Of a DNA stretch of 58,547 nt, positions 291 to 18,483 are shown piece by piece. How positions within the stretch are numbered: the stretch's first letter is position 1; the number at the start of each line of letters is the position of its first letter. A model generated the notes under the pieces. That model worked only from the letters and a program-made list of their open reading frames with translations. It was not told where the DNA came from and searched no databases. Both the position numbers and the translations under genes were made by a program. This stretch comes from a virus (Duplodnaviria; Caudoviricetes), in IMG/VR virus record IMGVR_UViG_3300037156_000120, positions 1 through 58,547 of that record, one strand, 5' to 3'.

Positions 291-3200
291 TTGTCGCAGG
301 CCGGTCTCATCAACGCGACGCAAGATCAGGGTCTTTCCATTGCTGAGGCCCGGAACTTTCGCGCCCCGCAATACGGGACGGCAACCGTTCCGTCCGGCGG
401 TGAAGGTATGTCTTTAGAAGAAGCGAGAAACTTTCGCCCCGCCACGCCGTTATCTCCGCCTACGTCGCCAGCTGATGCTGATGACGGATTTTTCAAGACG
501 ACCGGCAAGGCGTTAATTCGCGGCGCGGTTGAAGGCGCGACGGATATCGGCGAAGCGCCGACAGCCTTTGAAGATCGCCCAACAGACGAGCAAGACAATT
601 CGCATCTCGGAAAGATACTTGCCACACCTGTCAGCGAAGGCTGGAGTAGCCCTACTTGGTGGGCAGCGCACATAGCACACGATGTGGCTAGCGCAGCTCC
701 GTCTCTTGCGCTCGGCCTCGCTGGTGGGGCTGCCGGTGCTGCTACGGCTGGCGCTCTGACAGCCGAAACTGGCCCCGGCGCGATTGCTGCGGCTGCTGCA
801 GGTGGTCTTGCGGGTAGCGCCGCAGGCTTCGGTCTAGGCTCTGGTCTTTCGGAACTAAAACCTGCCTATCTGAAAGCGCGGGCCGATGGACTCGATCACG
901 ACGAGGCCGTGAGCCGTGCCATGGTAGAAAGCGGCATCGCTGGGGCGTTCGGATCGGTGATGGGCCTCGCGCCAGGCATGTCGTTTTTCGGTAAAACGGT
1001 GGAAAGCGCACTCAAGAAACCCATATCCGAGGCGTTGGCGCAGACATTCGGCGTCATGCCTGCCGTCGGAGCCGCGCAACAAGTCACGCAAGGAGCTGTC
1101 GAGGGTAAACTCCCGACGGCGGGCGAACTTGCAACAGGCTACGCGGAGAATGTTGGTGTTGGTGCTGCTCTTGTCGGCATTCATTCCGCTTTAGGGGTTG
1201 TTAGAAAAACGCCTGCTGACAAGATTGCTGACGATGTCACCGATCCGAATATCGACCTTAACACCGCGATCGACACAGCCGCGCAGGCCGCCAAGGGCGA
1301 GACGCCTGCCGCAGAGAGCATCGTCGCTGGCAAAGATGCGCTCGACGCCGCTGCCGCCCAGAGCAAGATCAGCACCCTGTTCAAAGGGATGAACACAGGC
1401 ACTGCAGAGCAAACCGACAACGGGACTGTTAACTACACGCCTAAGGGCTCCGACATCGCCATGCCAATGGAAGTGCGCGATCCGAGTCAAGAGCCGGAAG
1501 ACGGCAACGGCGTGTCTTCGTCGTTAGCGCAGAAAGTAACAGATCATTATCAAGACGAACATGGTGTCAATGTTGTGTGGGTGAAAGATCCCGGCAAGAA
1601 TGTACCATTCGACGGCGCTGTAGACCCGAATCAGCCGAACACGATATTCCTGTCAGATAACCCTGACCGCGCGATAACCGGCGTCGTCACTCATGAATTC
1701 GGTCACCTGATGGAAAACATCAGGGCGCCCGACACCAAGCTGCCCGACACGATAGGCCCTGACGGCGAAACGATCCCCGGCGCAATTAAACCCGGCGAAC
1801 GCTTCGGTGACCTCCTGAACGAGACCGTGTTGAAAAACATGAACTCCACTGCGTGGGATCAGGCTATCGAAATATTCTCGCCGTCCGCTCCGAAACGTGG
1901 CGCCGTCGACGACAACGGCGCGCCGGTCTACGCGCCCGGCGGCGAAGGCGACGCAGACCACGCGCAGGACATGGCCGTCCACTTCGTCAATGAATTCGCG
2001 AAAGACACGATAGGAGACGTCCAGAAAAACCCCGCTCTCGAACAACTAGTCCTTGGCAAAGTGGCCGACCTTGCGGAAGAGCGTTATGGGCCTGAAGTCG
2101 CCCAGACCATGATGACGAAATTCATGGACGGCATCAAAGCCGCTATGCAGACCGTGCGCGATCTATTTTCTGCGGACAAGAATACCGCATCGCTTTCCGA
2201 AAGCCGTTTTAATAATCTCGCCGAGGTCCACGACGTTGTCGCCAGCATGTTAGCGCACAAGTATTTCGAGAGGTTCGGGGATGAGCCTGCGCCCGTAGAC
2301 GACGTAGCGAACCGAGATAGTTTCTTAAAAGCTGGGACGCCCTCGCCGGCAACCGTAACGGCAGACACAAACCATCCGCTCGGCCCTGCCTATATCGACG
2401 CGCGTACGAAAGCCGCGAGCTATGCCCGCTGGCTCGGCCAGCTCGACGCCAAGCGTCGCGAAGACGCAAAGACGAGCGAACCTGTTCGCGTGTTGCAGCA
2501 GGCGCGTGACGCAATCCTGAACAAGGTTGGTGGTGTCGAAGATCGTCTTACGAAAACGGGTGCTGCACGTCTTGCGGATATCCGCTCACAGCTCGACGCA
2601 CGCCTTAATCCGGTCGGCGACAATGCTGATATGGCGAACGTGCGCGCGGCGATGGTTCGCGAGCATCAGAGAATGGCTGACGCGGCTTCAGTGTCGAAAG
2701 GACCGCAGTTTTCGCCGAAGCAGCGTGACGAAGACAATAAGCCGTTCTTCTCCGCGCTTCAGCGCGGTGTCGAAGACTTGAAGATGGACAAGGCGCCCCC
2801 CGGCCAGTGGGAAGCTACAATCAAAAATCTGCCCGGTATCAAGAGCGAAGAGATCGCTTGGTCCGGTCTGAATGAATTTTTGCGCGGTCAGACGAGACCT
2901 GTCACCAAGACAGAAGTGCTGCAACATCTGCGCGATAATGACGTGCAGATCAATGAAGTCGTTAAAGGCAATACGATCTCGGCTGAAGACGAAGAGGAAC
3001 ACGCTGAAATAAAACAGCGTTATCGCTACGATCCAGACAGCGTGTCGCAAGCCGACTATGATCGCATGGTTGATCTGGAGAAGCGCGCCTACAACTCAGA
3101 AGGCCAGACAAAATTTAGTACATACGCGCTGCCTGGCGGCGAGAACTATCGAGAAATGCTGATGACATTGCCGCCGACGGTGAGAGAAATACCGGCGTGG

Positions 3201-6200
3201 AAGGCGGTTCGACACGACGGTCAAGTAGACAGCACGTACGACAACGAGCTCGCTGCGCGCGATCGCGCCTCTGCGATCGGCGGAACTGTAGAACGGGGAA
3301 AGACAATCCGAGCGGAAGGCGGCTTCAAGTCGAGCCACTTTGACGAGCCGAACATTCTTGCCCACGCGCGCTTCGACGACCGCACCACCGCTGATGGCAA
3401 GAAAGATTTGCATGTTGCGGAGATTCAGAGCGATTGGCATCAAAAAGGCCGTCGAGAAGGATACGCCAAAGATCAACCGCAATTTTGGGTTCGCAACACA
3501 CGCTCTGGTAACGCATCACCTTTCTTCAACACGTTAGAAGAAGCTGACGCATATCGAAACAAGCTTCCTGAAGCGGTGCGCGGACAAACTATTATAAGCA
3601 AGCGTCCCGGCAAAGTCGGAACTGTTCCTGATGCCCCGTTCAAGACAACGTGGCACGAGCTGGCGATGAAGCGCATGCTGCGTTACGCCGCTGAGAACGG
3701 CTACGATCGTCTCAGTTGGGATACTGGTGAGACGCAAGCCGATCGATACGATCTCAGCCATCAAGTGGACAGCATCGGCTATCGTAAAGACGGCGACAAC
3801 ACTTACGAAGTCTCTGCCATAAAAGACGGCGAGAGTGTCATGTCTGAGCACGGTCAAACGCCTGCGCAGTTGGAAAACATTGTTGGCAAGGATGCCGCCA
3901 AGAAAATCGTTGACGGGGAAGGCACACCGCGCGCTGGCGGCGGCAATGTGAAAGACCTTTCCGGCCTTGATCTCAAAGTCGGCGGCGAAGGCATGAAAGG
4001 GTTCTACGACAAGATCCTGCCGAACTTCGTCAACAAATATGTGAAGAAGTGGAACGGCAAAGTCGAGAGAACGACTTTCGAGGCGGACGCAAACCGCAAA
4101 GAGTTCGATCAAGTCCCCTACATTGAAAGCGGAGACACGCCTGTGCATTCGGTCGCTATCACGCCTGAGATGCGCAAGAGCGTCATGCGCGGCCAGCCGA
4201 AATTCAGTCCGCGCAAAATCGAAGAACCGACTGAAGGCAAGCCGGTTCCGAAAGACGTCGCTCTCGCCAGCGGCTTGAAGAACAGCAACAAGGCTGTACT
4301 TAACGATTCGGCGCTGTCTGAGGCTGAAAAACGTGGTAGGCTTATCTCTGATCGCCGCATCAACGCGGCCCTCGCAAAGGAAGCAAATGGACGCCCAGCT
4401 GATGCACAATCAGGCCTTTCAGGCCCCGACGCCGGAAAAGGTAGCGGACGCCTCGACACTGGAGGCTTCACTGACAGCGAAAAACGGGCCTTCGCAAGAG
4501 CCAGCGCCGCCCAAGACGTTCGATCCGCTCGCCTCGGCGGTGAGCCGTCATCCTTCTCTTTCGAGCGAAAGAGCAGCGGAGATGGCGGAAAATCTCGGGT
4601 TCTAAAAAGCCTCGGCGTCACCTATGACGCCGAATGGAAAGCTGGCGCCGGTCTGCGCCGCGTCTACGAGAAAAACGGCAGCAAAGTCCCGCTCAGAATT
4701 CTCGAGCTCACGCCCGGTGATGACAAAAACGCCGCGCGTTTCGAGCAGGCGATCACGGCCAGCAAAAACTCCAGCAAGGATGGCGCCGCCGTCGCGGTCT
4801 ATCCTGTCGAGGACTATAAAAATTTCAAGCTGCTGATGTCCGACGACGGCAAGTCCGGCGCCGCGGTCAAGCCGGACGGCGACATCATCTCGGTGTTTTC
4901 AAACAATGGCACCGGTCACGCGATGTTCGAGGCTGCGATCGCAGCTGGTGGCCGCAAGCTCGACGCCTTCGACACCATCCTGCCCGATTTCTATCACAGC
5001 CACGGCTTCATCGAAGCCGCGCGCACGGCTTGGAATGACGAGTTCGCTCCCGAAGGCTGGGACAAGGCGCATTTCGCCGAATTCAACAACGGCAAGCCGG
5101 ATGTCGTCCTGATGGTTCTCGATCGCGGCAACGTCTCGCCCGTACTCGAGAAATCAAAAGTCTTCAGCGACTGGGACGGCGCTGCTCGCGTGCAGGAAAA
5201 GCTGCTCAAGAAAATGGACCGCGAGCAGCCCGCCGCGACGATCAATCTCCGTCTCGATCGCCTGGACGGCAAGAAGCCGTTCACTGTCGCCCAGGCGAAA
5301 GCCGAGTTGGCAAAATTCGGTGTCGACGCTGTCGCGACCCGTACGCGCAAGATTAACGGCAAGGAAGGCGAGCCCGGTGTCGTGATGAACCTGTCGCGCG
5401 CGCTGACGCCCGAGGAAGCCACGCGCTTCAGCGAGGCGATGAAGCAGGAAGCTATCCCGCAGTTTGCCAATGGCCGCGGCGAGCTGCACGGGCCCAACGC
5501 CGAGAAATGGGGAGATTTCAACCCTGAGAAATTTCATCCGATGCAGGAAGGTCAGGCGCTGCATTCTCCGCGAGTTTCATCCGAAACTCGCGACGCCCTT
5601 ATCAGAAAATATCCCGATCTCGCCCAGATGTTTAGGCGCCCCGCTAAGATATCCGAAGAGCCCGTCACGCCAGAAAAAGTCGAAACGCCTGCTTTCGAAA
5701 AGGAGCATGTCGGCTCGCTGGAAGAAGAGCTGGCCAAGGCAGGCCTTTCCGGGGCCGATAAAACTGCGCCAGCGGCTGAAACGCCCAAGCAGCGCGCCAT
5801 CACGATGCAAAACCCCGAGGGTAATGGCAAACCGATTCAGCGCGCCTTGAACGACGAGGAAACCCGCGCCCTCGAAAATGCGCCGCAGATAGAAGCTGCA
5901 TCGAAGCTGGTCGACATGAACAAGGATCGCGCCATCCGGATCGCTATGCGGAAGGAGCAGCCGCCGAAGGATCTGCTGCCGACCTTCGTATATTTCGAGC
6001 TGGAGCGCCGTGCGCTGGCTGAAGGTGATGACGAGCTTCAGGCCAAGCTCAGAACATCACCACTGGCGAAGGAAGTTACGACAGCCGGTCGTCTTGGACA
6101 ATCCTTCGTGACGCGAGATCCCGTCGCCGCCGCCGTAGACGCGCACATCCAAGTTGTGGAAAATGCTCGCACAGCGGCGCTCAAGGCCAAAGGCGGCGAC

Positions 6201-6332
6201 GTAGTGAAAGTGCAGGCCAAAGCCGAAAAGGAAGTGGCCGAGCAGATGGTAGCAGCGAAGAGACAGGCGCGGGCGCTTTCGCCGCGCGAGAAATGGGCGC
6301 AAACTATCGCCAAAATAACGTGTGCGACATAA
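291..6332 (+). CDS. Giant (2013 aa) internal virion / polyvalent protein
   Basis: Gly/Ala-rich hydrophobic N-terminus, HEFGH zincin-like motif, a domain with LPGGENYRE...EIQSDW...APFK motifs, a GNAT-like segment (GGRKLDAFD...FYHSHGF); lies after the other ejection genes. Confidence 0.8.
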   Translation: MSQAGLINATQDQGLSIAEARNFRAPQYGTATVPSGGEGMSLEEARNFRPATPLSPPTSPADADDGFFKTTGKALIRGAVEGATDIGEAPTAFEDRPTDEQDNSHLGKILATPVSEGWSSPTWWAAHIAHDVASAAPSLALGLAGGAAGAATAGALTAETGPGAIAAAAAGGLAGSAAGFGLGSGLSELKPAYLKARADGLDHDEAVSRAMVESGIAGAFGSVMGLAPGMSFFGKTVESALKKPISEALAQTFGVMPAVGAAQQVTQGAVEGKLPTAGELATGYAENVGVGAALVGIHSALGVVRKTPADKIADDVTDPNIDLNTAIDTAAQAAKGETPAAESIVAGKDALDAAAAQSKISTLFKGMNTGTAEQTDNGTVNYTPKGSDIAMPMEVRDPSQEPEDGNGVSSSLAQKVTDHYQDEHGVNVVWVKDPGKNVPFDGAVDPNQPNTIFLSDNPDRAITGVVTHEFGHLMENIRAPDTKLPDTIGPDGETIPGAIKPGERFGDLLNETVLKNMNSTAWDQAIEIFSPSAPKRGAVDDNGAPVYAPGGEGDADHAQDMAVHFVNEFAKDTIGDVQKNPALEQLVLGKVADLAEERYGPEVAQTMMTKFMDGIKAAMQTVRDLFSADKNTASLSESRFNNLAEVHDVVASMLAHKYFERFGDEPAPVDDVANRDSFLKAGTPSPATVTADTNHPLGPAYIDARTKAASYARWLGQLDAKRREDAKTSEPVRVLQQARDAILNKVGGVEDRLTKTGAARLADIRSQLDARLNPVGDNADMANVRAAMVREHQRMADAASVSKGPQFSPKQRDEDNKPFFSALQRGVEDLKMDKAPPGQWEATIKNLPGIKSEEIAWSGLNEFLRGQTRPVTKTEVLQHLRDNDVQINEVVKGNTISAEDEEEHAEIKQRYRYDPDSVSQADYDRMVDLEKRAYNSEGQTKFSTYALPGGENYREMLMTLPPTVREIPAWKAVRHDGQVDSTYDNELAARDRASAIGGTVERGKTIRAEGGFKSSHFDEPNILAHARFDDRTTADGKKDLHVAEIQSDWHQKGRREGYAKDQPQFWVRNTRSGNASPFFNTLEEADAYRNKLPEAVRGQTIISKRPGKVGTVPDAPFKTTWHELAMKRMLRYAAENGYDRLSWDTGETQADRYDLSHQVDSIGYRKDGDNTYEVSAIKDGESVMSEHGQTPAQLENIVGKDAAKKIVDGEGTPRAGGGNVKDLSGLDLKVGGEGMKGFYDKILPNFVNKYVKKWNGKVERTTFEADANRKEFDQVPYIESGDTPVHSVAITPEMRKSVMRGQPKFSPRKIEEPTEGKPVPKDVALASGLKNSNKAVLNDSALSEAEKRGRLISDRRINAALAKEANGRPADAQSGLSGPDAGKGSGRLDTGGFTDSEKRAFARASAAQDVRSARLGGEPSSFSFERKSSGDGGKSRVLKSLGVTYDAEWKAGAGLRRVYEKNGSKVPLRILELTPGDDKNAARFEQAITASKNSSKDGAAVAVYPVEDYKNFKLLMSDDGKSGAAVKPDGDIISVFSNNGTGHAMFEAAIAAGGRKLDAFDTILPDFYHSHGFIEAARTAWNDEFAPEGWDKAHFAEFNNGKPDVVLMVLDRGNVSPVLEKSKVFSDWDGAARVQEKLLKKMDREQPAATINLRLDRLDGKKPFTVAQAKAELAKFGVDAVATRTRKINGKEGEPGVVMNLSRALTPEEATRFSEAMKQEAIPQFANGRGELHGPNAEKWGDFNPEKFHPMQEGQALHSPRVSSETRDALIRKYPDLAQMFRRPAKISEEPVTPEKVETPAFEKEHVGSLEEELAKAGLSGADKTAPAAETPKQRAITMQNPEGNGKPIQRALNDEETRALENAPQIEAASKLVDMNKDRAIRIAMRKEQPPKDLLPTFVYFELERRALAEGDDELQAKLRTSPLAKEVTTAGRLGQSFVTRDPVAAAVDAHIQVVENARTAALKAKGGDVVKVQAKAEKEVAEQMVAAKRQARALSPREKWAQTIAKITCAT

Positions 6333-6333
6333 G

Positions 6334-8217
6334 ATGGCATTTTGCGTCCCACCAAACCAAGCTGAGAAACTGATCGCCGCCCTCGAGAAGGCCGGGACGA
6401 CGCCGCCCGACCTGATGGATATGCCGAGCAGCGATGCTCGCCGTGCATTCTTCGAGAAGTTCGTCAGTAAGGAAGATGCTGCGCAGATCAATCTTGCATT
6501 AGAGAAGACCAGCCTTCTGAAAGACCAAAATGCTGGCTACATGCGCTGGTACAACAACATCAAGGAAACTGTCCCGAAAACTGTTCAGCGTGATCTTCTG
6601 CACAAAATTGAAAAGCTTGACCGCGTGTTGAGTCCTGCCGAAGAAAAAGATTTCTATGCCGATCTTGCTGCCAGCAAAGTTGGCACGGCTGTCACCTTCG
6701 AAGAAGGACAGAAGATAACAAAACTCGCGCAAAAAGCGGCGCTGGAGCGCGACAAGGCGACTACGGCTTCGGCTGGCGTGAGTACGGAATTTCTGATGGC
6801 CGCGTCCGATCTCGAGCATTACGTGAAATCCCTGAAGCCGACGACGGTTTATGGATCAATCGGCAGAATGGCCGCCATTATTGCCAGAAACCATCTGCTG
6901 ATGAACCTGTCGACGCCAATCAAGACCACTGCAGGGCAACTAACAAACTCCGTGATGGACCTTTTCACCCGCAGAATGTCGAACCGTGTTCTCAGCGGGG
7001 CGGATCCAGCAACAGCGACCGCGTTGAAGAAAGAAGCCTGGGAAGTATTCCGGGGGTCCAAAAACCAGTTCAATACTGCCTCCATGGAAAGCTATAGAGA
7101 TACCGGCAAGCTCGGCGAGAAAGCGCGCTTTGACGTCTCAGAAGGAATGTTGTCCAGCAATCCGGCTTTGCGCACAGCCGAGGCAGTTGTGCGAGGGTAT
7201 GCGCGACTTACCAACAAGATCGCCATTGACTACGAGCATAATTTTACCTTCACAAAATTCTATCAGAACGCGTTCTTCGACGGCGCGCACATAGGCGCGA
7301 CCAATATCGCCAAGTCGGAAGGATTGGCTGGTGCGGCGTTGAAATCGCGAACTGGCGCCATCATGCGCGATGCCGCGAAGATCGAGCCGGAAACGGACGT
7401 CGGGAAGCTTGTCCGCGTCGAGGCGCAGAAGCAGGCCGCGCGCGTCACGTCGACGAACGAAACCATCATGGCAAAGATGGCGCTAGGCGTGAAGGACGCG
7501 ATGAACAAGTGGGTTCCCGGTCTTGGCGATGCCATGATGCCGATAGCGAAGATACCAGCGAACATCATTTACAACGGTATCGAGAATGCCGGTATCGGTC
7601 TTCCGCACGGCGCGTGGGATATCTTCCAGGGCCGCAAGAAGATACAGTCGGATGATCTGCAGACACGTTACGAAGGTATGGCGCAGTTCGCAAACGGAAT
7701 ACAGCGCGTTGGCCGCACGGTTGGCGTTCTCGCTGCTGCCGCCTTCTTCTCCAGTTTATTCGTGAAAAGAGATTTCCGGACGGATGGATACGGCAATCAT
7801 TTCTTCCGCATTGGCGACATCTGGATCAACACGGAATATCTGAATTTCATCTCACCCGCGTTCGCTGGCGCGATGGAGGTCAAGCAGTATGGCCGCGCCA
7901 ATGACGGCCCCGAGAAGGCGATCGAGAATTATGGCCGCGGCGCGCTTCAAGGCTTGAAGAGCGCGCCCGGTGTCGACGAGATCAGCAATCTGGTCAACAG
8001 AGTTACCAGCGGCGACCCTTTCAAAGGCATCACGAAATACGCCGCTTCTCGCGGCGTTCCAGCCTTTGCGCATAATCTAGCCAATACCAGACCAATGGAC
8101 CGGCTGTTCTTCGGTGCGACTGGCGTCGAGACGCAACACGATGTCGAGCGCGATAGAATCGAGAAAGCACAGCGCGCCGCGCAAAGCAGACGCGAGAATG
8201 AAAGATATAGGCAATAG
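6334..8217 (+). CDS. Internal virion protein (resembles the C-terminal part of large ejection proteins)
   Basis: 627-aa helical ORF starting MAFC, 1 nt after the giant gene's stop; hydrophobic segments near the C-terminus. Confidence 0.65.
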   Translation: MAFCVPPNQAEKLIAALEKAGTTPPDLMDMPSSDARRAFFEKFVSKEDAAQINLALEKTSLLKDQNAGYMRWYNNIKETVPKTVQRDLLHKIEKLDRVLSPAEEKDFYADLAASKVGTAVTFEEGQKITKLAQKAALERDKATTASAGVSTEFLMAASDLEHYVKSLKPTTVYGSIGRMAAIIARNHLLMNLSTPIKTTAGQLTNSVMDLFTRRMSNRVLSGADPATATALKKEAWEVFRGSKNQFNTASMESYRDTGKLGEKARFDVSEGMLSSNPALRTAEAVVRGYARLTNKIAIDYEHNFTFTKFYQNAFFDGAHIGATNIAKSEGLAGAALKSRTGAIMRDAAKIEPETDVGKLVRVEAQKQAARVTSTNETIMAKMALGVKDAMNKWVPGLGDAMMPIAKIPANIIYNGIENAGIGLPHGAWDIFQGRKKIQSDDLQTRYEGMAQFANGIQRVGRTVGVLAAAAFFSSLFVKRDFRTDGYGNHFFRIGDIWINTEYLNFISPAFAGAMEVKQYGRANDGPEKAIENYGRGALQGLKSAPGVDEISNLVNRVTSGDPFKGITKYAASRGVPAFAHNLANTRPMDRLFFGATGVETQHDVERDRIEKAQRAAQSRRENERYRQ

Positions 8218-9667: not shown

Positions 9668-10192
9668 ATGCTTCCGACATTCGAGACAGCGTTGCGTCTT
9701 TTGCTTCAACACGAAGGCGGCTTCGTCAACAATAGTTCTGATCCTGGCGGAAGAACCAACCTCGGCGTAACGCAGCGCCAGTGGGAAAAATACGTCGGCC
9801 ACCCGGTAGACGAAGCCGACATGAGGGCCCTTACGCCCGCGCGCGTATCCCCTTTCTACAAGACCGAATATTGGGATGCGATAAAGGGCGACGCGCTGCC
9901 AGCTGGCGTCGATGACTGCCTGCTCGATTGTTGTGTCAACAGCGGCCCCGGGCGCGCAGTAAAGATCCTGCAGGGCGTTCTCGGCCTTGCCGAGGATGGC
10001 GCGATCGGCCCGGCGACGATTACTGCGGTCTCGTCACGATCGCCGCACGACACGATTCCAGCATATTGTGCTGCCCGGCTGGCTTTCCTGAAGACGCTCC
10101 CAACATGGCCGACATTCGGCAAGGGCTGGGAAGCGCGCGTCGTTGAGGTTCAGACCGAGGCGCTGGCTTTCGTCAGCCACGACAAAAGTTAG
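9668..10192 (+). CDS. Endolysin, glycoside hydrolase family 108 with a peptidoglycan-binding C-terminus
   Basis: HEGGFVN..DPGGRTNLGVT motif, DGAIGPAT, and FGKGW..R C-terminus. Confidence 0.92.
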   Translation: MLPTFETALRLLLQHEGGFVNNSSDPGGRTNLGVTQRQWEKYVGHPVDEADMRALTPARVSPFYKTEYWDAIKGDALPAGVDDCLLDCCVNSGPGRAVKILQGVLGLAEDGAIGPATITAVSSRSPHDTIPAYCAARLAFLKTLPTWPTFGKGWEARVVEVQTEALAFVSHDKS

Positions 10193-11864: not shown

Positions 11865-12170
11865 TTATATCAATTCGCCAAGTTGGAATTTTACGCAAGC
11901 GCGGCGAAACAGCGTGGAAAGTTTCGGTCCTTTGAATGTGTTAGTCTTCTCGACCCAGCCCATCTTCCACCACTTACCTATGCCACAGCACTTCAAACAT
12001 TCCTGCATCGCGGTACGCAACCGCTTCCCGTATCCGCCGTGGCTGCCAGTGCAGCAGCCATAGTGCCACTTAAGACCGGACTCTTCGATGCCATCGCCGG
12101 GTCGCGACATCATAACGCCGCGCGCTTCGAGCCAATCGGCTGCCAGCTTTTCTCTATCGCGGAGTAGCAT
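11865..12170 (-). CDS. Hypothetical protein
   Basis: 101-aa ORF with a GGAG RBS in the operon. Confidence 0.6.
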   Translation of the reverse strand: MLLRDREKLAADWLEARGVMMSRPGDGIEESGLKWHYGCCTGSHGGYGKRLRTAMQECLKCCGIGKWWKMGWVEKTNTFKGPKLSTLFRRACVKFQLGELI

Positions 12171-12181
12171 TTCCCGGCTCC

Positions 12182-12673
12182 CTACTTGGCTTCTGTTGAT
12201 ACTGAAACAATCGCAACCAGCAATTCGTGCGAACGCTCAAGATACTGCACCCGCGTTTCTTCGGTCCATGACAGCGCGCCCTTGTCGGCAAGATGCTCGA
12301 TTGCTGCTTCGATCTTCTTGGTCGAAACAGGAAAGCACTCTTTGGCGTTGATCTCTAGATCATTTCGCAGCGTCATCGTGACAGGGACGCGCCGAAGGAA
12401 AAGACCGCCCATGTCGTGATGCTGGCGACTGTTCGGCTCCATGCCGCGCGCCTCAGCGTCACCGGCCCGATACCATTCATGGGTCGCGGTCAAAGATTGA
12501 TCGACACGGTAGAACTCGCTTTGCGCCACGCCATCACAAAAGCGCACCCGACACGGGGCCATGAATGGCGTCGTGCCATCGTCCTTGTCCACGGTGACAT
12601 ACCACGAATTGCACTTCCGGCATGTATAGCGGTTTTTCTGGCCGACTAGGCTGTTGCCGTTCTTGTCGCTCAT
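12182..12673 (-). CDS. Hypothetical protein with an N-terminal Cys cluster
   Basis: CRKC...CRVRFC; start overlaps the upstream stop. Confidence 0.7.
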   Translation of the reverse strand: MSDKNGNSLVGQKNRYTCRKCNSWYVTVDKDDGTTPFMAPCRVRFCDGVAQSEFYRVDQSLTATHEWYRAGDAEARGMEPNSRQHHDMGGLFLRRVPVTMTLRNDLEINAKECFPVSTKKIEAAIEHLADKGALSWTEETRVQYLERSHELLVAIVSVSTEAK

Positions 12674-12885
12674 CAGATGAACCCCTTATCCTTTGCCAGC
12701 CATTCTGGCATCGTGAACGTGCCATCGTCGTTCCGCTCTACCTGAGACTTGGGCACCCATTCGGTGTACTGCCCGTCATAGATGCGGAAAGCCTTTTCGG
12801 TTTCGCCTTTGAGTTCGGCGGAAATGTCTACGAGGTCCGACGCGCACTCACCGCGATTGCCAGCGTTGCCGTATGGGAGCACCAT
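12673..12885 (-). CDS. Small conserved-type phage protein
   Basis: ETEKAFRI...WVPKSQV...MPEWLAKDKG motif typical of small phage beta-proteins. Confidence 0.75.
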   Translation of the reverse strand: MVLPYGNAGNRGECASDLVDISAELKGETEKAFRIYDGQYTEWVPKSQVERNDDGTFTMPEWLAKDKGFI

Positions 12886-13067
12886 CAAAATTCCCCTTCG
12901 CGTTCGGCATAGTCGCCGCACCAATCTGTTTTCTGCACGATAGGCCAACACGCGAGCCACGGCTTTTTCTCCGCGAGCCTTTCGGCGGCAATCGTCGCGC
13001 CGCATGGAGCCATCCGGCGGCATTGCTCTGTTGGCACATCGAAGAACTTGCATGTCTCACACTTCAC
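12885..13067 (-). CDS. Small Cys-rich protein
   Basis: CETC..F...CRR..P...WP.V...DWCG pattern. Confidence 0.7.
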   Translation of the reverse strand: MKCETCKFFDVPTEQCRRMAPCGATIAAERLAEKKPWLACWPIVQKTDWCGDYAEREGEF

Positions 13068-13073
13068 GGCCCG

Positions 13074-13134
13074 GCTCCCCTACTGATTTTTGTAGCCGGG
13101 GAGAAACTGCACCCCAGCCGTGTTGACCCGCGCC
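13074..13134. repeat. 61-bp exact direct repeat, copy 2
   Basis: Identical to 11750-11810. Confidence 0.95.
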
Positions 13135-13298
13135 GGACGCCAGACCATGCCGCAATGTTGGCAAGCGTGAGTGTGGTGCGGCTTCGTCGCAAACTCGCCT
13201 TCGTCAATGTGCCGCTCGCCGCAAGCTGGGCACCAGAGCAGCATCGGGAAAATGTCTACCGCGTCTTGGATCATCCGAACGCTTGGCTTCTTGCTCAC
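13080..13298 (-). CDS. Zinc-ribbon protein
   Basis: CPAC...HHTHACQHC. Confidence 0.7.
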   Translation of the reverse strand: MSKKPSVRMIQDAVDIFPMLLWCPACGERHIDEGEFATKPHHTHACQHCGMVWRPARVNTAGVQFLPGYKNQ

Positions 13299-13310
13299 GG
13301 CTTCACTCCT

Positions 13311-13733
13311 TCACTGATTTTTGGTTGGCTGGAAGATTACGATTGCAGACGGAAACGGCGCTGAGTTTTTATGACCGCCGAACTTCAACCGTCCACGCAA
13401 AAATTCTACCTGTCCCTTGATCGCGTAGTCATGCCACCACGCAGTATCGGTTCTGGCCGGAACAAGACACACCACCGTCGCGCCAGATTGGGCGCTCTCG
13501 TAAGCCTTCTTCATCCACCGGCCTATCGTGCGACCATAGGGCGGGTTCATCCAGCACACGCCGGTCCACTCCTGCACCAAGCCGTTCTCGGCTTCGGAAA
13601 AGTATTCGTAGCATTTTGTGTTGTCCTTGTTCGCGCAAACATCGCGCACGAAATGCCAGCGCGCATGAAGGCGGTCAAACAAATCTTGCGGCGTTGACCA
13701 TAGATCGGTGGCGCTGCTGAAATGGACGTTCAA
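13311..13733 (-). CDS. Phage DNA N6-adenine methyltransferase (Dam-like)
   Basis: W.TP, D.CA, WMNPPY, LVPARTDT.WWH, GRLKF, APFPS motifs; TTG start overlapping the upstream TGA. Confidence 0.9.
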   Translation of the reverse strand: MNVHFSSATDLWSTPQDLFDRLHARWHFVRDVCANKDNTKCYEYFSEAENGLVQEWTGVCWMNPPYGRTIGRWMKKAYESAQSGATVVCLVPARTDTAWWHDYAIKGQVEFLRGRLKFGGHKNSAPFPSAIVIFQPTKNQ

Positions 13734-13891
13734 TGCGTCCTCCCGAAAGTGATAATTGTCGTGAGGCCAAGGGCGCAAGCCCAATACCCAGCCGCCCACA
13801 AGTTTCCGGCGAACAGCCAGCGCGTCACCGCCAGCCCGTACAGGGTCATGATGACGAAGTTGAAAATGCGAGGGTCTAGCAGGACGGTCAA
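13730..13891 (-). CDS. 53-aa two-TM membrane peptide, paralog A (not in ORF track)
   Basis: MTVLLDPRIFNFVIMTLYGLAVTRWLFAGNLWAAGYWACALGLTTIITFGRTH; GGAG RBS, TTG start. Confidence 0.75.
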   Translation of the reverse strand: MTVLLDPRIFNFVIMTLYGLAVTRWLFAGNLWAAGYWACALGLTTIITFGRTH

Positions 13892-13904
13892 AATCGCTCC
13901 CTCG

Positions 13905-14630
13905 TTATGCTGCTTTGGTTCTGGACAATTCCAGCCGCTTTTGCGCCATCACAAAATACTCACCCTCTAGTTCTATGCCAATGAAGTTCCGGCCAGTGTT
14001 GATTGCGGCGTGGCCTGTTGTGCCGCTGCCCATCACATTGTCGAGGATGGTGTCGCCGGGGTTGCTGTAAGTGCGGATCAGATATTCGCAGAGGGCGAGC
14101 GGCTTCTGCGTCGGGTGTTTTCCTCCCCGCTGCTTGTCGCTTGAAAACCGCAGCACATCGCGCGGGTAACGGGTGGTGCTGTCATACGGCGTCCGGTCAT
14201 GCTCGTTATAGACCGGACAATCTTCGCGGCGTTTCTTGGTGGAAACCTTGCGTGCATGGCCGCTGGTCATCTGCGGATTGTAGGTATATCCGCCAGCAGA
14301 GAACACCAAGATATTTTCGTGTGCCTTCATCGGTGCGCGGTTGGCGTTGAGGTGCCCGGTGGCATTTCCCTTTTCCCAAATCCATTCGTGGCGCAGTTCT
14401 TTGATGTTGCTCATACCAAGCATCTTATCGAAGGGCGATTGAGCGAACAGGACGATAGCGCCACGGCATACGCGCCTGAACTCCGGCCATAGCCGCTGCA
14501 GGTCAATGGGGCTATCCCATTTGCAGTTGGTGGTGCCATACGGAAGATCGGCAAGGATCATCGCAGCCGAGCGGCTGTTCAGCCCCGGCAGGATTTCCAT
14601 GCAATCTCCATGTAGTAGATGCGCGGTCAA
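13905..14630 (-). CDS. DNA methyltransferase, N6/N4 (beta class)
   Basis: DLPYG catalytic motif before HPTQKP and LDNVMGSGTTG SAM-binding motif. Confidence 0.92.
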   Translation of the reverse strand: MTAHLLHGDCMEILPGLNSRSAAMILADLPYGTTNCKWDSPIDLQRLWPEFRRVCRGAIVLFAQSPFDKMLGMSNIKELRHEWIWEKGNATGHLNANRAPMKAHENILVFSAGGYTYNPQMTSGHARKVSTKKRREDCPVYNEHDRTPYDSTTRYPRDVLRFSSDKQRGGKHPTQKPLALCEYLIRTYSNPGDTILDNVMGSGTTGHAAINTGRNFIGIELEGEYFVMAQKRLELSRTKAA

Positions 14631-14688
14631 AATCGCTCCTCGTTTGCAGGGTCGGCGGCTCGGACGATTAGCCCAAGCCGCCTTCCGG

Positions 14689-14838
14689 TTACTTGATCGT
14701 CTTTTCAGATGCGACGGCGCACCGTGCGTTCGCTGCGTTGCAAGCCGCCTGTGAAAACTTCAAGGCGTCGTCCGACTTCTCCGCGCTCGCGGCCTTATCT
14801 ATCAGTTGTTCAACGGCACTTTTCGTCTCAGTCGTCAT
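14689..14838 (-). CDS. 49-aa helical protein flanked by hairpins (not in ORF track)
   Basis: MTTETKSAVEQLIDKAASAEKSDDALKFSQAACNAANARCAVASEKTIK; GGAG RBS lies inside a hairpin loop. Confidence 0.7.
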   Translation of the reverse strand: MTTETKSAVEQLIDKAASAEKSDDALKFSQAACNAANARCAVASEKTIK

Positions 14839-14844
14839 CGGGTT

Positions 14845-15078
14845 CTAGCTCCGATTAGAAAGCCCAGAGCCGCTGGGCGCGGTTTCGAGTGCGTCTAGGA
14901 CGTGCTGCGGGTTATAGCCGGGTTTGAAGTGCCACTCTGCATCTGCCCCGCAATAGGTCATGTCCGCGACATAATTTAGCGCCTCTCTCGCCTTCCGCAG
15001 CTTCGCAGAGGCGGCCATGCGAGCGTCCATATCTCGGTGCTGTTGCTCAACGCTGACGAGAACTTGTGTCCTGCTCAT
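14845..15078 (-). CDS. Hypothetical protein
   Basis: ATG start just downstream of the MTase stop; continuous operon. Confidence 0.55.
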   Translation of the reverse strand: MSRTQVLVSVEQQHRDMDARMAASAKLRKAREALNYVADMTYCGADAEWHFKPGYNPQHVLDALETAPSGSGLSNRS

Positions 15079-15088
15079 ACCTTTGCCC

Positions 15089-15715
15089 CTAAACTGCAAG
15101 AGTGAACTGCCGCTGCGCTGCCTCGATGCGCTGGCAGGCAATGTCGAAATACTTTGGATCAATCTCTATGCCGGTGAATTTTCGCTCCATCTGCACCGCC
15201 GCCACGCCGGTTGTCCCACTACCCATGAACGGGTCGAGAATGGTTTCGGCAGGTTCGGGCAATTTAGAAATGCACCACTTCATGACGCGAAGCGGCTTTT
15301 GTGTCGGATGACAGCCGCGCTCTGCGTTAGTGGCCGCGATTGTCTGGTCCACCAACCGAGCGTTGCCGTCTAGATTGGTCCAGGCCATTTCACAATCCGC
15401 CATAGTTATGACGGCATCGCGCTTATACCAGACTAGAAAGCAGCGTGACGGTGGCAAGGAGAAGTAGTTTCCGCCCCAGACCACCGCGCTCTTTGCTTTT
15501 GAGATTGCCAGTTCGATGTTCTTTTGTGGCGCACAGGCATCCCAAACCTTGTATTTGCCCTCGAACTTTTTACCCCATGTTCCGCCTTGCAATTTCTCCC
15601 CAAGCCCATATGGCGGGTCAGTCACCAAAGCATCAGCCGTCCCAAGCGTCGGCAATATCTCCCGGCAGTCTCCCAGGTAGAGCGTAGCGTTTCCGATTGT
15701 CTCAGCCCGGCTCAA
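15089..15715 (-). CDS. DNA methyltransferase, N6/N4 (beta class)
   Basis: TDPPYG, HPTQKP, LDPFMGSGTTG, GIEID; TTG start overlapping the upstream TGA. Confidence 0.92.
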   Translation of the reverse strand: MSRAETIGNATLYLGDCREILPTLGTADALVTDPPYGLGEKLQGGTWGKKFEGKYKVWDACAPQKNIELAISKAKSAVVWGGNYFSLPPSRCFLVWYKRDAVITMADCEMAWTNLDGNARLVDQTIAATNAERGCHPTQKPLRVMKWCISKLPEPAETILDPFMGSGTTGVAAVQMERKFTGIEIDPKYFDIACQRIEAAQRQFTLAV

Positions 15716-15873
15716 TGTTTGTACCCGAATGTGACAGTTAGCGTGATAGCGAGCGCCGAGAGCCAGTAGCAGCAATCGGCCCATGACCCATTGATGGCCC
15801 AGCGCATCGCATTGGCGCAGTACAGGCCAATGATGATGAAGTTAAAAATGCGCGGGTCTAGAAGATAGGCCAC
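15712..15873 (-). CDS. 53-aa two-TM membrane peptide, paralog B (not in ORF track)
   Basis: MAYLLDPRIFNFIIIGLYCANAMRWAINGSWADCCYWLSALAITLTVTFGYKH; GGAG RBS, GTG start. Confidence 0.75.
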   Translation of the reverse strand: MAYLLDPRIFNFIIIGLYCANAMRWAINGSWADCCYWLSALAITLTVTFGYKH

Positions 15874-15882
15874 GGTTGCTCC

Positions 15883-16074
15883 TCATTTAACCAGTGTTGG
15901 CTTAGAAAGTTGTCTGGCGGCTGAAACAGTCGTCTGAGTGAACGAGCTATTCAAATCCTCGCGGCTCAGATAGTTCATTTCGCCCTTCCCACATTCCCAG
16001 CAAATAACTTCGCGCTCGCTGTCCTCCAAGTTTCCGCAATGGCCGCAGCGCCATATTCCTTTTATCTTCGCCAT
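15883..16074 (-). CDS. Zinc-ribbon protein
   Basis: CGHC...CWEC; GGGAG RBS before MAKIKG. Confidence 0.65.
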   Translation of the reverse strand: MAKIKGIWRCGHCGNLEDSEREVICWECGKGEMNYLSREDLNSSFTQTTVSAARQLSKPTLVK

Positions 16075-16085
16075 GCCCGTCTCCC

Positions 16086-16223
16086 TCAGTGGAAAGTGAT
16101 GTGGTGAAACGCCCACCAGATGGCAGCCGGTATCCCGACAACGACAGCCGCAGCCGCGACGATCATCCCGAAGATGCCGAATTTAATCAGCGTGTCTAAG
16201 CCGTCGAACATACCCGGTCCCAT
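16086..16223 (-). CDS. 45-aa single-TM peptide
   Basis: MGPGMFDGLDTLIKFGIFGMIVAAAAVVVGIPAAIWWAFHHITFH fills the gap in the operon. Confidence 0.55.
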   Translation of the reverse strand: MGPGMFDGLDTLIKFGIFGMIVAAAAVVVGIPAAIWWAFHHITFH

Positions 16224-16225
16224 GA

Positions 16226-16411
16226 TTATCCCCCTGCTTGAAGTTGTGGCGCGATGTTCGCCAGTCGTGTTTGATCCAGCCGCAGGCGCTCACCGTAATA
16301 GGCAATGGCCCACCGAAGGGTAATGGCCTCGCAATCCACGCACGGTTCATCAAACGTCTTTCCGTGGGAACAGCCTTTGCGCTTTACGTCTGACAAATTC
16401 GGCTCCTTCAA
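16226..16411 (-). CDS. Hypothetical small protein (CxH...CxxC)
   Basis: Start overlaps the upstream stop; Cys/His cluster. Confidence 0.55.
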   Translation of the reverse strand: MKEPNLSDVKRKGCSHGKTFDEPCVDCEAITLRWAIAYYGERLRLDQTRLANIAPQLQAGG

Positions 16412-16947
16412 TCTGCTAGATGTTTTGGTGGACGCCCGACGCCAACGCCGCGCGGCTTCAAAAGCTGATAGGCCAAGCTGCGGGTCAGGCCGATCAGGGC
16501 CAACACTTCCGCCAGCTTCAATTTCGGATTGCGCCAGTGAACCAGCATTTCGCGCTCGGACATTTTGGCCCGGTCCACTATCTCCTGGCGGCGCTTCTCG
16601 GCCAGATATGCCTCCGAAGGCTTCTCAGGCTCCAGCGCGGCATCGCGCATCGTTACGCCGTGGGTTTTGCTGTCCTGGCCGGTCACAATGTCATGGACGG
16701 TCACGCCCTGGCCGTGGAAGCGTTCCAGCGCCTTGCGGATCGCCACCTTGCCGCCGAAGCTGCGAAGGCCATCCACGGTGCCAAGGCGCTCGCCGCTCTT
16801 GAGCGTGATCTTCGACCAATGCTCTGACGGCTCCCAGCCTTCGTAAATATCCTTGCCGCGAACGCCCATATCCACCATGCGGGCGAAAACCTTCTTGGTC
16901 CCGGCATAGTATCTAATTGGTTTTGGGGCTGGTTTTTCTTTAAGCAT
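16408..16947 (-). CDS. Degenerate serine-resolvase-like protein with C-terminal HTH and AT-hook
   Basis: LKSGERLGTVDGLRSFG...RFHGQGVTVHDIVTGQDS resembles the resolvase core; LAEVLALIGLTRSLAYQLL HTH; GRPPK; no YxRVS. Confidence 0.55.
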   Translation of the reverse strand: MLKEKPAPKPIRYYAGTKKVFARMVDMGVRGKDIYEGWEPSEHWSKITLKSGERLGTVDGLRSFGGKVAIRKALERFHGQGVTVHDIVTGQDSKTHGVTMRDAALEPEKPSEAYLAEKRRQEIVDRAKMSEREMLVHWRNPKLKLAEVLALIGLTRSLAYQLLKPRGVGVGRPPKHLAD

Positions 16948-16955
16948 GGAAACAT

Positions 16956-16984
16956 TCCATAGCCTATGGACAATTACCCGTCAA
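16956..16984 (-). promoter_or_regulatory. Putative sigma70 promoter with palindromic operator
   Basis: TTGACG-17-TATGGA overlapping the palindrome TCCATAG-C-CTATGGA, only 8 nt before the ATG. Confidence 0.45.
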
Positions 16985-17100
16985 GGGCGTATATCGCTGG
17001 AACTGACCCTGGCTGAGGCTTTATGCCAGCGCAAGTTGGTTCTGGGGACTAGACCACGCCGATGCCGAAGCGGTGGGGCTCAAATTACAAGAGAGGCCGA

Positions 17101-18483
17101 TCAAGCGGCGCGCTTCATGTAATCGAGCAGCGCCTCTTGGACGCTTTTCTTGCCGACAAGACGATCATAGACGCCGAGATCCATCGTGTGGCGCGCGAGG
17201 ATCAAATGCACGAAGACCGGGCGATCGTAACCAGACTGCTTCTGGCGCATCGGGCCAATGCGCTCGATGATCTGCATGAAGTTTTCCAGATTCCAGTCGA
17301 CGCCAAAGAACACGAGGATATTGCCGCCATCCTGCAGATTCAGGCCGTGACCGGCTGACGCCGGGTGCGCAAAGAGAATCGGGATCTTGCCCGCGTTCCA
17401 ATCCGCTTCGGTGCTGGGCTTCGCGTCGAGCACGCGGCCATTGGGAAACGCTTTCTGAAGGCGCTCGAGATCCGCGACAAAATTATAGGCGACCAGAACC
17501 GGCGTGCCGTTCGCCTCTTCGATCACGCTCTTCAGCGCATCGATCTTGGCGTCGTGCAGCTCTTCCCACTGGCCTTTTGTTTCCGATATGTCGCTGTCGC
17601 CGGTATAGCAGAAGCCATTGGCGATCTGCAGTAGCTTGCTGGTCTTGACCGCAGCGTTGGCGGCGCCGACACCCTTTCCCTTGATCTCCGTGAATTTCTT
17701 CTTCTCCATTTCGCGGTAGATCTTGCGGACGCTATCGGGCAGATCCACGAAAACCTGATTGTAGATCGGCTCGTCGACGTCGAGACCTTTGACGGTGATG
17801 TAGACGTCGTGAACCTTCACGTGGATCTCGCTCTCGGCGTGCGCCATCGGCTCGAGGCTGTAGCCATCCTTACCGCGCTGAAACCAGCGGTTTTCGAAAG
17901 CCGTGAATGAATCGCCGAGACGCGCGCCTTTATCGATGAAATAGGTCTGGCCCCATAGATCCTTGAGCCCATTAGGCGACGGCGTGCCTGTCAGGCCGAT
18001 AAGACGGGTGATCTTGTCGAAGGCGACCTTCTTCAGCGCCTGCCCGCGCTTGGCGCCCTGTGTGACGCGCGTGCCTTTGAGCCGGGTGAATTCATCGGGA
18101 ATGACGGTATGAAACGGCCAGTCATCGCCCAGTTCTTCGACCAGCCACGGGACGTTCTCATAATTGATGGCCATGATCTGCGCGTCGACAGTCAGCGCCT
18201 TCTCGCGCTCTTTCGGTGTGCCGGTGATGATCGATGCGCGCAGATGGTTCAGATGCTTCCATTTCTCGAGCTCAGGCCCCCAGACTGTGCGCGCGACGCG
18301 CAGGGGCGCGATTACCAACGCCGGGAAGATGTCATCCTCGACCAGCGTCAGCTGGTCGAGCGCTGTCAGCGTGCAGACCGTCTTACCGCCGCCCATCGGC
18401 GCCCAGATCCCGCAACGCTTGTTGTCGCGAATGAACTGCATCGTCGGGTATTGATAGTCGTGCGGGACGAAGATCCTGCTCAC
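17101..18483 (-). CDS. SNF2-family (SF2) helicase
   Basis: MGGGKT Walker A, DE motif II, LTGTP, SAGHGLNLQ, QIIERI. Confidence 0.92.
   Translation of the reverse strand: MSRIFVPHDYQYPTMQFIRDNKRCGIWAPMGGGKTVCTLTALDQLTLVEDDIFPALVIAPLRVARTVWGPELEKWKHLNHLRASIITGTPKEREKALTVDAQIMAINYENVPWLVEELGDDWPFHTVIPDEFTRLKGTRVTQGAKRGQALKKVAFDKITRLIGLTGTPSPNGLKDLWGQTYFIDKGARLGDSFTAFENRWFQRGKDGYSLEPMAHAESEIHVKVHDVYITVKGLDVDEPIYNQVFVDLPDSVRKIYREMEKKKFTEIKGKGVGAANAAVKTSKLLQIANGFCYTGDSDISETKGQWEELHDAKIDALKSVIEEANGTPVLVAYNFVADLERLQKAFPNGRVLDAKPSTEADWNAGKIPILFAHPASAGHGLNLQDGGNILVFFGVDWNLENFMQIIERIGPMRQKQSGYDRPVFVHLILARHTMDLGVYDRLVGKKSVQEALLDYMKRAA

Follow-up and report, generated by a model that had tools for sequence, protein, structure and literature searches.

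The 58,547-nucleotide sequence analysed here (IMG/VR virus record IMGVR_UViG_3300037156_000120; Duplodnaviria, Caudoviricetes), which is called the window in its whole length, carries on its minus strand two diverged copies, pepA and pepB, of a genuine phage gene that is conserved and has so far escaped annotation, each of them directly followed by the gene of a DNA methyltransferase (MTase). The 53-residue products belong to an undescribed family of small proteins that has a real and recurrent, but non-obligate, link to orphan MTases. Orphan MTases are among the commonest counter-restriction genes of phages, and their expression and exchange are only partly understood.

pepA and pepB are two copies of a conserved gene

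Two paralogous open reading frames (ORFs) of the same length had been proposed in a first-pass annotation of this sequence, and both are indeed present on the minus strand, with 53 codons each. Their products align without gaps and share 25 of 53 residues (47%; BLASTP E 4e-16), and 123 of 221 aligned columns are identical at the DNA level. pepA starts with TTG preceded by GAGGGAG, and pepB with GTG preceded by GAGGAG. Both genes end in CAT TGA, and the TTG embedded in this motif opens the frame of the downstream MTase, which is Dam-like after pepA and of the N6_N4 type after pepB; a third MTase lies between the two modules. All these elements of the annotation were recovered, and the genes concerned are, in the order of transcription:

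15712-15873, minus strand: pepB, small hydrophobic protein gene (53 residues, GTG start), paralogue of pepA and member of the conserved family
15089-15718, minus strand: MTase-B, N6/N4 (beta-class) DNA methyltransferase (PF01555, E 1.9e-22; phrog_67, E 8.3e-46)
13905-14630, minus strand: middle MTase, N6/N4 DNA methyltransferase (PF01555, E 2.2e-29; phrog_67, E 2.6e-72)
13730-13891, minus strand: pepA, small hydrophobic protein gene (53 residues, TTG start), paralogue of pepB and member of the conserved family
13311-13736, minus strand: Dam-like N6-adenine DNA methyltransferase (PF05869, E 1.3e-27; phrog_111, E 7.6e-54)

Pieces spanning the peptide/MTase junctions (13582-13739, 13647-13797 and 15672-15865) are found, identical, in short contigs from four other peat-metagenome runs.

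The peptide family is large. A word-indexed search returned 22 homologous clusters at E <= 3e-12, with 62-89% identity and almost all of 53-55 residues, and an exhaustive HMMER search with pepB returned 116 representative clusters at E <= 1e-3, nearly all of 50-60 residues. Such a number of homologous clusters of near-constant length places the peptide ORFs beyond chance. Loci were collected from 12 viral contigs, 42 metagenome contigs and a single genome contig, the latter being the same contig as that of locus L004 and labelled as an alphaproteobacterial metagenome-assembled genome. Two of the viral loci (L013 and L014) were dropped as spurious, their matches covering 24 residues inside 34-codon frames. 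Merging of the loci that were at least 95% identical across the peptide left 44 distinct loci.

When 46 genes are aligned by codon, seven residues never change (D6, F10, N11, I14, Y36, W37 and A40) and synonymous third positions vary freely: A40, for instance, is encoded by GCC in 11 genes, GCG in 18, GCA in 6 and GCT in 11. As synonymous variation is free even at invariant residues, selection bears on the protein and not on the DNA, and the family is thus under purifying selection at the protein level. The terminal histidine is encoded by CAT in 22 genes and by CAC in 15, and is also kept ahead of TAA or TAG stops, which indicates that it is a feature of the protein rather than a by-product of the TTG overlap. 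The starts of the peptide genes themselves are preceded by Shine-Dalgarno sequences with at least 4/6 matches in 40 of 52 cases.

The family has no match at E <= 1 in Pfam-A, PHROGs v4, NCBIfam or PADLOC, and is represented by unnamed clusters only in the protein atlas. Its profile retrieves from PDB sequences only two non-significant nanobody matches (E 0.13 and 0.42). When 50,697 cultured-phage records were searched by tblastn with pepA and pepB, nothing better than E 4-8 was obtained; a match of this range in an Achromobacter phage, behind a tail-fibre gene and among hypothetical proteins, was judged to be due to chance. The first-pass annotation knew of no description of the pairing of such a peptide with an MTase and, likewise, none was found in the part of the literature reached by a full-text search.

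The methyltransferases of the window

The Dam-like MTase matches PF05869 with 97 bits (cut-off 28.1) over profile positions 7-145 of 169, and MTase-B and the middle MTase match PF01555 with 80.8 and 103.4 bits, respectively (cut-off 26.7). The two MTases that follow the peptide genes had been considered to come from unrelated families. Their Pfam families do differ (PF05869 and PF01555), yet each of the two is an amino-methyltransferase that carries a DPPY-type motif, which qualifies the word "unrelated". The motif of MTase-B (D34-P35-P36-Y37) is invariant in an alignment of 56 MTase-B-type relatives. The TTG starts of both MTases are supported by the agreement of the N-termini of their relatives: among 79 analysed relatives of MTase-B, 70 have an N-terminus that lies at most two codons from the TTG-defined one, and the relatives of the Dam-like MTase align from residue 2. 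The middle MTase ends 13 nucleotides upstream of pepA.

MTase genes are clustered around the peptide gene

The genes surrounding the peptide gene were compared in 38 evaluable loci out of the 44, five having been excluded because of less than 150 nucleotides of downstream sequence and L057 having been dropped as degenerate. The directly abutting downstream gene encodes an MTase in 12 of these 38 loci, and these MTases are drawn from four or five families:

L003, L004, L009, L016, L018 and L019: PF01555 (Pfam match)
L023: PF01555-type (below the Pfam cut-off; phrog_67, E 5e-33)
L045: PF01555-type, partial (phrog_67, E 6e-11)
L005 and L035: PF05063 (MT-A70)
L027: PF05869 (Dam-like)
L017: phrog_799 (EcoRI-methylase-like)

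The downstream gene of the 26 other loci does not encode an MTase: small zinc-ribbon proteins, DUF3310, NinX, RusA, DUF1064, a dGTP diphosphohydrolase domain, a ParB-like protein and products without a known family are found there. Irrespective of the side, an MTase lies at most 0.5 kb from the peptide in 17 of the 44 loci.

A Pfam scan of the six-frame ORFs of at least 110 residues was carried out on all 44 loci (167 kb); it covered 450 of 461 ORFs, leaving out one ORF of L056 and ten of L057, with a threshold of E <= 1e-5 in two batches and of 1e-4 in the third. All 14 Pfam-significant MTase ORFs begin or end at most 0.5 kb from the peptide. Nine abut it downstream, one abuts it upstream (a ParB_N-MTase fusion in L006), three are located 200-250 nucleotides upstream (L010, L011 and L050), and the last one, a C5 MTase, lies 463 nucleotides downstream in L056. 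As much as 47% of the scanned bases are more than 1.3 kb away from the peptide, and the probability of this clustering under uniform placement is about 1e-4. In addition, tblastn revealed that L032 has an MTase fragment 2.2 kb upstream of the peptide and that, in L011, the second gene downstream of the peptide is Dam-like. The pairing of the peptide with MTases thus recurs well outside the window, with several MTase families involved.

This adjacency does not result from inherited synteny, since the flanks of the loci are mostly unrelated: once the peptide and MTase regions are masked, only 15 pairs of loci share another ORF at E <= 1e-8, and none of the 15 other genes of the window that were tested has a relative in any peptide locus. 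The association is most regular in two groups of a tree of 46 peptides, which is built on 53 columns and in which many forks are unresolved; both window copies are included in the counts. In the fully supported "TH" clade, an MTase abuts the peptide downstream in 7/7 members (pepA, L003, L004, L016, L017, L018 and L019), the MTases coming from three or four families (short and long forms of PF01555, PF05869 and phrog_799). The same holds for 5/5 members of the KH subclade (pepB, L009, L027, L035 and L045; support 88/86), with MTases of PF01555, PF05869 and PF05063. All these results show that the association of the peptide with MTases is real and non-random, yet not obligate.

MTases mostly occur without the peptide

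The association was also considered from the side of the MTases, in 80 viral loci carrying relatives of MTase-B (49-58% identity) and 80 carrying relatives of the Dam-like MTase (60-75%), with 1.5-kb flanks each. The peptide was searched for with a hidden Markov model, which recovered every peptide locus used as a positive control. It is present in only 3 of these 160 loci and, in all three, it lies directly downstream of the MTase, with a 4-nucleotide overlap. An MTase abutting the peptide upstream is found in four loci in total (L006, L126, L077 and L103).

Seven of the 56 MTase-B-type proteins placed in a tree are peptide-linked and lie scattered across it, and the nearest neighbours of the peptide-linked MTases of L126, L103, L077 and L003 are the peptide-less ones of L104, L086, L068 and L134/L137, respectively; such sister MTases share DNA over the MTase gene only. 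Conversely, in a complete phage genome with terminal repeats (G001, the record that contains L008), the peptide gene lies near 28.4 kb, between an RNase-H-fold gene and DUF3310, and the PF01555 genes are found at 524-745 and 44770-45582, i.e. 16-20 kb apart from it. With a peptide in just 3 of 160 loci, sister MTases that lack it and such distances in G001, neither gene needs the other: MTases do without the peptide, and the peptide does without an adjacent MTase. The proposed two-gene unit is thus not an obligate one, as seen from both sides, by these 160 MTase loci and by the 26 of 38 peptide loci with a non-MTase gene downstream.

The gene overlap is a general feature of these MTases

Among the 79 relatives of MTase-B, 44 overlap some same-strand upstream ORF by 4 nucleotides and 4 overlap it by 1 nucleotide. 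When the abutting upstream ORF has at most 100 residues, a membrane-like segment is found in only 1 of 32 cases. As the 4-nucleotide overlap is seen whatever ORF lies upstream, it represents the normal packing of MTase cassettes and is not, as the control of MTase translation proposed in the annotation would suggest, a device specific to the peptide.

The TTG embedded in CATTGA is used at 10 peptide/MTase junctions. In the window, MTase-B starts within its 4-nucleotide overlap with pepB, behind a weak Shine-Dalgarno sequence, while the last codons of pepA (GGG AGG ACG CAT) provide the Dam-like gene with a GGGAGG Shine-Dalgarno sequence five bases ahead of its TTG; L019 is alike, with Gly-Arg codons. 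Ribosomes that terminate on the peptide ORF probably go on to translate the downstream MTases of the window, in a way that would not be special to this peptide.

The peptide gene as a mosaic unit

DNA homology between loci begins about 10-15 nucleotides inside the peptide ORF and stops at its stop codon. Six loci of the TH clade match pepA up to position 13730 (13728 in L004) and no further; beyond this point, their MTases (PF01555 or phrog_799) differ from the Dam-like gene of the window. Similarly, a 466-nucleotide contig from another run matches 13770-13884 only, within the pepA gene, and diverges on both sides. The DNA identity between copies of the peptide gene is of about 70-86% over about 150 nucleotides. 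Judged from these breakpoints, the peptide gene is a mosaic unit of its own, as the MTase genes are.

The region around the middle MTase contains three further elements:

14654-14682, minus strand: stable RNA hairpin between orf49 and the middle MTase (fold computation)
14624-14639, minus strand: copy 1 of a translation-initiation repeat, at the start of the middle MTase (16-nucleotide exact direct repeat)
13885-13900, minus strand: copy 2 of this repeat, at the start of pepA

The repeat, GGAGCGATTTTGACCG on the minus strand, comprises a ribosome-binding site, the TTG start and the first codons. Its two copies are spaced by 739 nucleotides and bracket the middle MTase exactly; flanks included, 21 of 22 positions match, with one 1-nucleotide indel. 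It looks as though insertion of the middle MTase cassette had duplicated the pepA initiation region. A weaker repeat of 29 nucleotides (76%) is found at 13064-13092 and 13295-13323, at the ends of the zn72 (see below) and Dam-like genes, and includes the last codons (Lys-Asn-Gln-stop), a Shine-Dalgarno sequence and a GTG start. Both repeats resemble what the insertion of cassettes between genes would leave behind. The hairpin has a 12-bp stem and a folding energy of -29.1 kcal/mol (z -2.9; 3 of 200 shuffled sequences fold equally well), and no U-tract. Together with a terminator-like hairpin that follows orf77 (14862-14878), it separates the pepB module from the module formed by the middle MTase, pepA and the Dam-like MTase.

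Predicted fold and topology of the peptide

AlphaFold2, run on 46 sequences, predicts two helices, H8-28 and H31-50, which a turn of two residues folds into a hairpin; the mean pLDDT (predicted local distance difference test) is 85. The predicted helices have 21 and 20 residues, their strictly hydrophobic cores only about 15 each, and the conserved residues R24 and D33 are located near the turn. The hydropathy profile likewise displays two hydrophobic cores, flanked by aromatic residues. About 7 N-terminal, 2 loop and 3 C-terminal residues are left outside the predicted helices. The peptide is thus probably a micro-protein that crosses the inner membrane twice, by two transmembrane helices. 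A fold search with the hairpin returned only generic helical hairpins from PDB (E > 3), and the sole match in BFVD is an uncharacterised family member (A0A6J5QWH9).

Lysine and arginine are nearly balanced on the two sides of the predicted hairpin: the termini together have about 2.0 per protein and the loop about 1.5, a bias of about 0.5 residue. A natural fusion of 157 residues, P0024, contains two copies of the peptide and an extra central helix (predicted helices 7-27, 31-50, 60-93, 103-124 and 130-155). This architecture is the one expected upon fusion of an antiparallel dimer; in the model, the packing of the two halves is of low confidence, with a predicted template modelling score (pTM) of 0.46. 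The charge balance and the fusion hint at an antiparallel dimer, and should be taken as a lead only.

Favoured explanation and alternatives

We favour, with moderate confidence, the explanation that pepA and pepB are copies of a small, independent cassette for a membrane protein, which is usually housed in an MTase island within the early operon. The peptide gene behaves as a self-contained mosaic cassette, and its preferred address would be a cluster of orphan MTase cassettes (the "MTase island") that lies distally in the early/replication operon of phages whose hosts would be Alphaproteobacteria and other soil and peat bacteria. The genes of such an island would be packed with 4-nucleotide stop/start overlaps. 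The peptide would not be a dedicated cofactor or tether of the MTase, as it sits upstream of, downstream of or far from MTases, and as MTases of the same types mostly do without it. It would act within the membrane early in infection, our best guess, from the genomic context only, being that it helps in taking over the host, in excluding other phages or in counter-defence, and its co-residence with MTases would reflect a shared accessory "self-protection" region and not a physical partnership.

Several points weigh against this explanation. All 12 members of two peptide clades have a downstream MTase, even though the MTase family changes, and the exchange of one family for another, non-orthologous one in the same place points to selection for "some MTase here", which exceeds what co-residence predicts. 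Furthermore, most downstream MTase starts in peptide loci have a weak Shine-Dalgarno sequence (2-4/6 matches), so that translation of the MTase may really depend on the peptide ORF. Finally, many of the loci counted as having no MTase are short contigs, for which this absence is valid within the sequenced flank only. The first two of these points would be accounted for if peptide and MTase formed a functional two-gene unit, at least in the TH and KH clades, a possibility that we consider rather unlikely. The peptide ORF would then be the translational entry point, with ribosomes stopping at TGA and re-initiating at the embedded TTG; this would yield a low, early and peptide-linked level of MTase, and selection would keep an MTase after the peptide and/or both products would serve a shared pathway (anti-restriction plus exclusion). 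The 12/12 pattern, with abutting MTases of four to five families, is its strongest argument, to which are added the 10 junctions with a CATTGA-embedded TTG, the mostly weak Shine-Dalgarno sequences and the occurrence of peptide-MTase pairs in unrelated flanks. A unit of this kind is however difficult to reconcile with the other genes that follow the peptide in 26 of 38 loci, with the MTases that abut it upstream in L006, L126, L077 and L103, with its absence from 157 of 160 MTase-relative loci, sister MTases included, and with the presence of the same overlaps behind unrelated upstream ORFs; in the window itself, the strong GGGAGG at the end of pepA makes independent initiation of the Dam-like gene possible. 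A bolder version, which we hold to be unlikely, would make the peptide a genuine companion of orphan MTases: a dual-topology, two-helix micro-protein dimerising in the inner membrane, part of a portable two-part self-protection module with a translationally chained MTase, which would combine epigenetic masking of the phage DNA with a membrane-level block or counter-defence. Selection would maintain an MTase at its side but leave the family of this MTase free to change. It would explain both the 12/12 pattern in two clades and the placement of the peptide on either side of MTases.

The annotation had also suggested that the conserved peptide gene could be a recombination handle, i.e. a patch of homology serving the exchange of the adjoining MTase cassette. 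The breakpoints fit this suggestion: homology does not extend beyond the peptide ORF and is lost exactly at its stop codon, the point from which the loci differ in MTase family, the 466-nucleotide contig matches pepA only, and the exact 16-nucleotide initiation-region repeat brackets the middle MTase. However, synonymous sites vary as expected under a constraint on the protein only, so that nothing beyond protein-level selection conserves the DNA; about 70-86% identity over about 150 nucleotides makes a poor substrate for homologous exchange; no second conserved flank exists beyond the MTase; and breakpoints at gene ends are general in phage mosaicism and are also true of the MTase genes alone. 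We therefore regard a handle as improbable. Tethering of the MTase by the peptide, which would bind it and keep it on the inner membrane, close to DNA that is entering or being replicated, is more improbable still. It is suggested by the adjacency and the predicted membrane character only, and a hairpin that exposes only about a dozen residues outside its helices (about 7 + 2 + 3) would have to bind partners of several families located on either side, most MTase relatives moreover doing without the peptide. As for the peptide ORFs being fortuitous frames within the 5' part of MTase genes that would be longer and start at GTG 13799 or ATG 15784, in-frame ORFs of such length do exist (162 and 231 residues), but this reading can be discarded for practical purposes: the peptide is conserved at the protein level across its family, it is found without a downstream MTase in 26 loci, MTase relatives start at the TTG-defined N-terminus, and homology between MTase types switches exactly at the peptide stop.

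Comparison with known systems

The peptide/MTase junctions recall the com-mom operon of phage Mu, in which a small upstream gene overlaps the gene of a DNA-modification enzyme and controls its translation. The likeness lies in a small ORF that runs over the start codon of a gene for DNA modification, so that the enzyme could require the small gene for its translation. Com is however a soluble, zinc-finger RNA-binding activator, whereas the peptide is almost wholly a hydrophobic helix and, according to the family alignment, has no Cys4 or zinc motif, and the overlap is generic for these MTases. A Com-like translational activator was therefore rejected, despite the overlap.

With class II holins, the peptide shares two predicted membrane helices, and an endolysin gene is found within a few kb in several loci. 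It differs from them by the lack of a charged C-terminal tail, the C-terminus (G-Y-K-H or G-R-T-H) coming right after helix 2, and by its gene, which is an early-operon gene, present twice and not beside the endolysin: that of the window (9668-10192, plus strand) is more than 3.5 kb away. A class II holin was thus also rejected. The peptide also resembles the small membrane proteins of phages (exclusion proteins of the T4 Imm type, morons), which are, as a class, very small, helical and hydrophobic, encoded in accessory regions and gained or lost singly, although neither its sequence nor its fold links it specifically to a named member. The near-balanced lysine and arginine content and the fused 2+1+2-helix relative P0024 are also reminiscent of dual-topology proteins (EmrE/SMR, CrcB/Fluc, DUF606), but the peptide has only two helices per copy and no homology to those families. 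Finally, the three MTases of the window are ordinary members of the families that make up the orphan MTase cassettes of phages (PF05869, PF01555 and MT-A70 PF05063), and their homology stops at gene borders, as in such cassettes; what sets the window and 17 of the 44 related loci apart is that MTases are placed at most 0.5 kb from one particular small hydrophobic protein gene.

The peptide family could serve as a marker for MTase islands in viral metagenomes, and the peptide is a candidate new early membrane factor. The peptide/MTase junctions also offer a tidy test case for small upstream ORFs that set MTase dosage. If peptide and MTase were to cooperate, they would represent a new type of two-component self-protection module in phages; otherwise, the family simply adds to the small accessory genes.

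Genomic context in the window

The window is a linear IMG/VR virus record of 58.5 kb with a CheckV completeness of 90, and PHROG matches (terminase, portal, major head protein and endolysin) identify it as a tailed phage. The minus strand carries an early/replication block with a primase-helicase, an exonuclease, a Gp2.5-like single-stranded DNA-binding protein, a family-A DNA polymerase and a SNF2-type helicase (PHROG matches), and the peptide and MTase genes are located at the distal end of this block. Their order on the minus strand is zn77, pepB, MTase-B, two small ORFs (orf77 and orf49), middle MTase, pepA, Dam-like MTase and zn72, the genes not yet listed being:

15883-16116, minus strand: zn77, CxxC zinc-ribbon-like protein of 77 residues, directly upstream of pepB (ORF; sub-threshold zinc-ribbon matches)
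14845-15078, minus strand: orf77, 77 residues from an internal ATG (ORF; no Pfam or PHROG family)
14689-14838, minus strand: orf49, 49 residues (ORF; no significant Pfam or PHROG family)
13080-13298, minus strand: zn72, CxxC zinc-ribbon-like protein of 72 residues, directly after the Dam-like gene (ORF; sub-threshold zinc-ribbon matches)

Small CxxC zinc-ribbon proteins recur beside peptide and MTase genes, in the window (13080-13298 and 15883-16116) as in L006 (4152-4289) and L048 (234-425). Among the sub-threshold matches of zn72 is the Lar restriction-alleviation family (Lar_restr_allev, E 0.062), which was not used as evidence. Just upstream of zn77, a further small hydrophobic ORF of 45 residues (16086-16223, minus strand) has no family match, and its sequence is unrelated to that of the peptide. 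On the plus strand, an ORF of 2013 residues (291-6332) has a single weak PHROG match (phrog_2563, over residues 1503-1581) and may encode a giant virion or injected protein. In the region 12000-17500, identical short contigs are found in four other peat-metagenome runs from different studies, and the phage or close relatives thus appear to recur in peat.

Other observations were made in the peptide loci. The contig of L003 encodes a GcrA-like cell-cycle regulator and a three-transmembrane holin of the gene-transfer-agent type (5423-5887 and 6592-7014), which points to alphaproteobacterial hosts; in alphaproteobacteria, adenine methylation drives the cell cycle. L103 contains a second MTase (2775-3323; phrog_11619, E 3e-35) about 0.5 kb downstream of the peptide, which itself comes after the first MTase, as in a multi-MTase island like that of the window. 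The second gene downstream of the peptide in L011 (4397-4966) has an Erf-like match in its N-terminal part (phrog_155) and a Dam-like one in its C-terminal part (phrog_111; 45% identity with the Dam-like MTase of the window), and may be a fusion or a frameshifted pair. Finally, a transposase of the IS1595 family is located in L018 (5364-6158, minus strand), 1.5 kb from the peptide-MTase pair.

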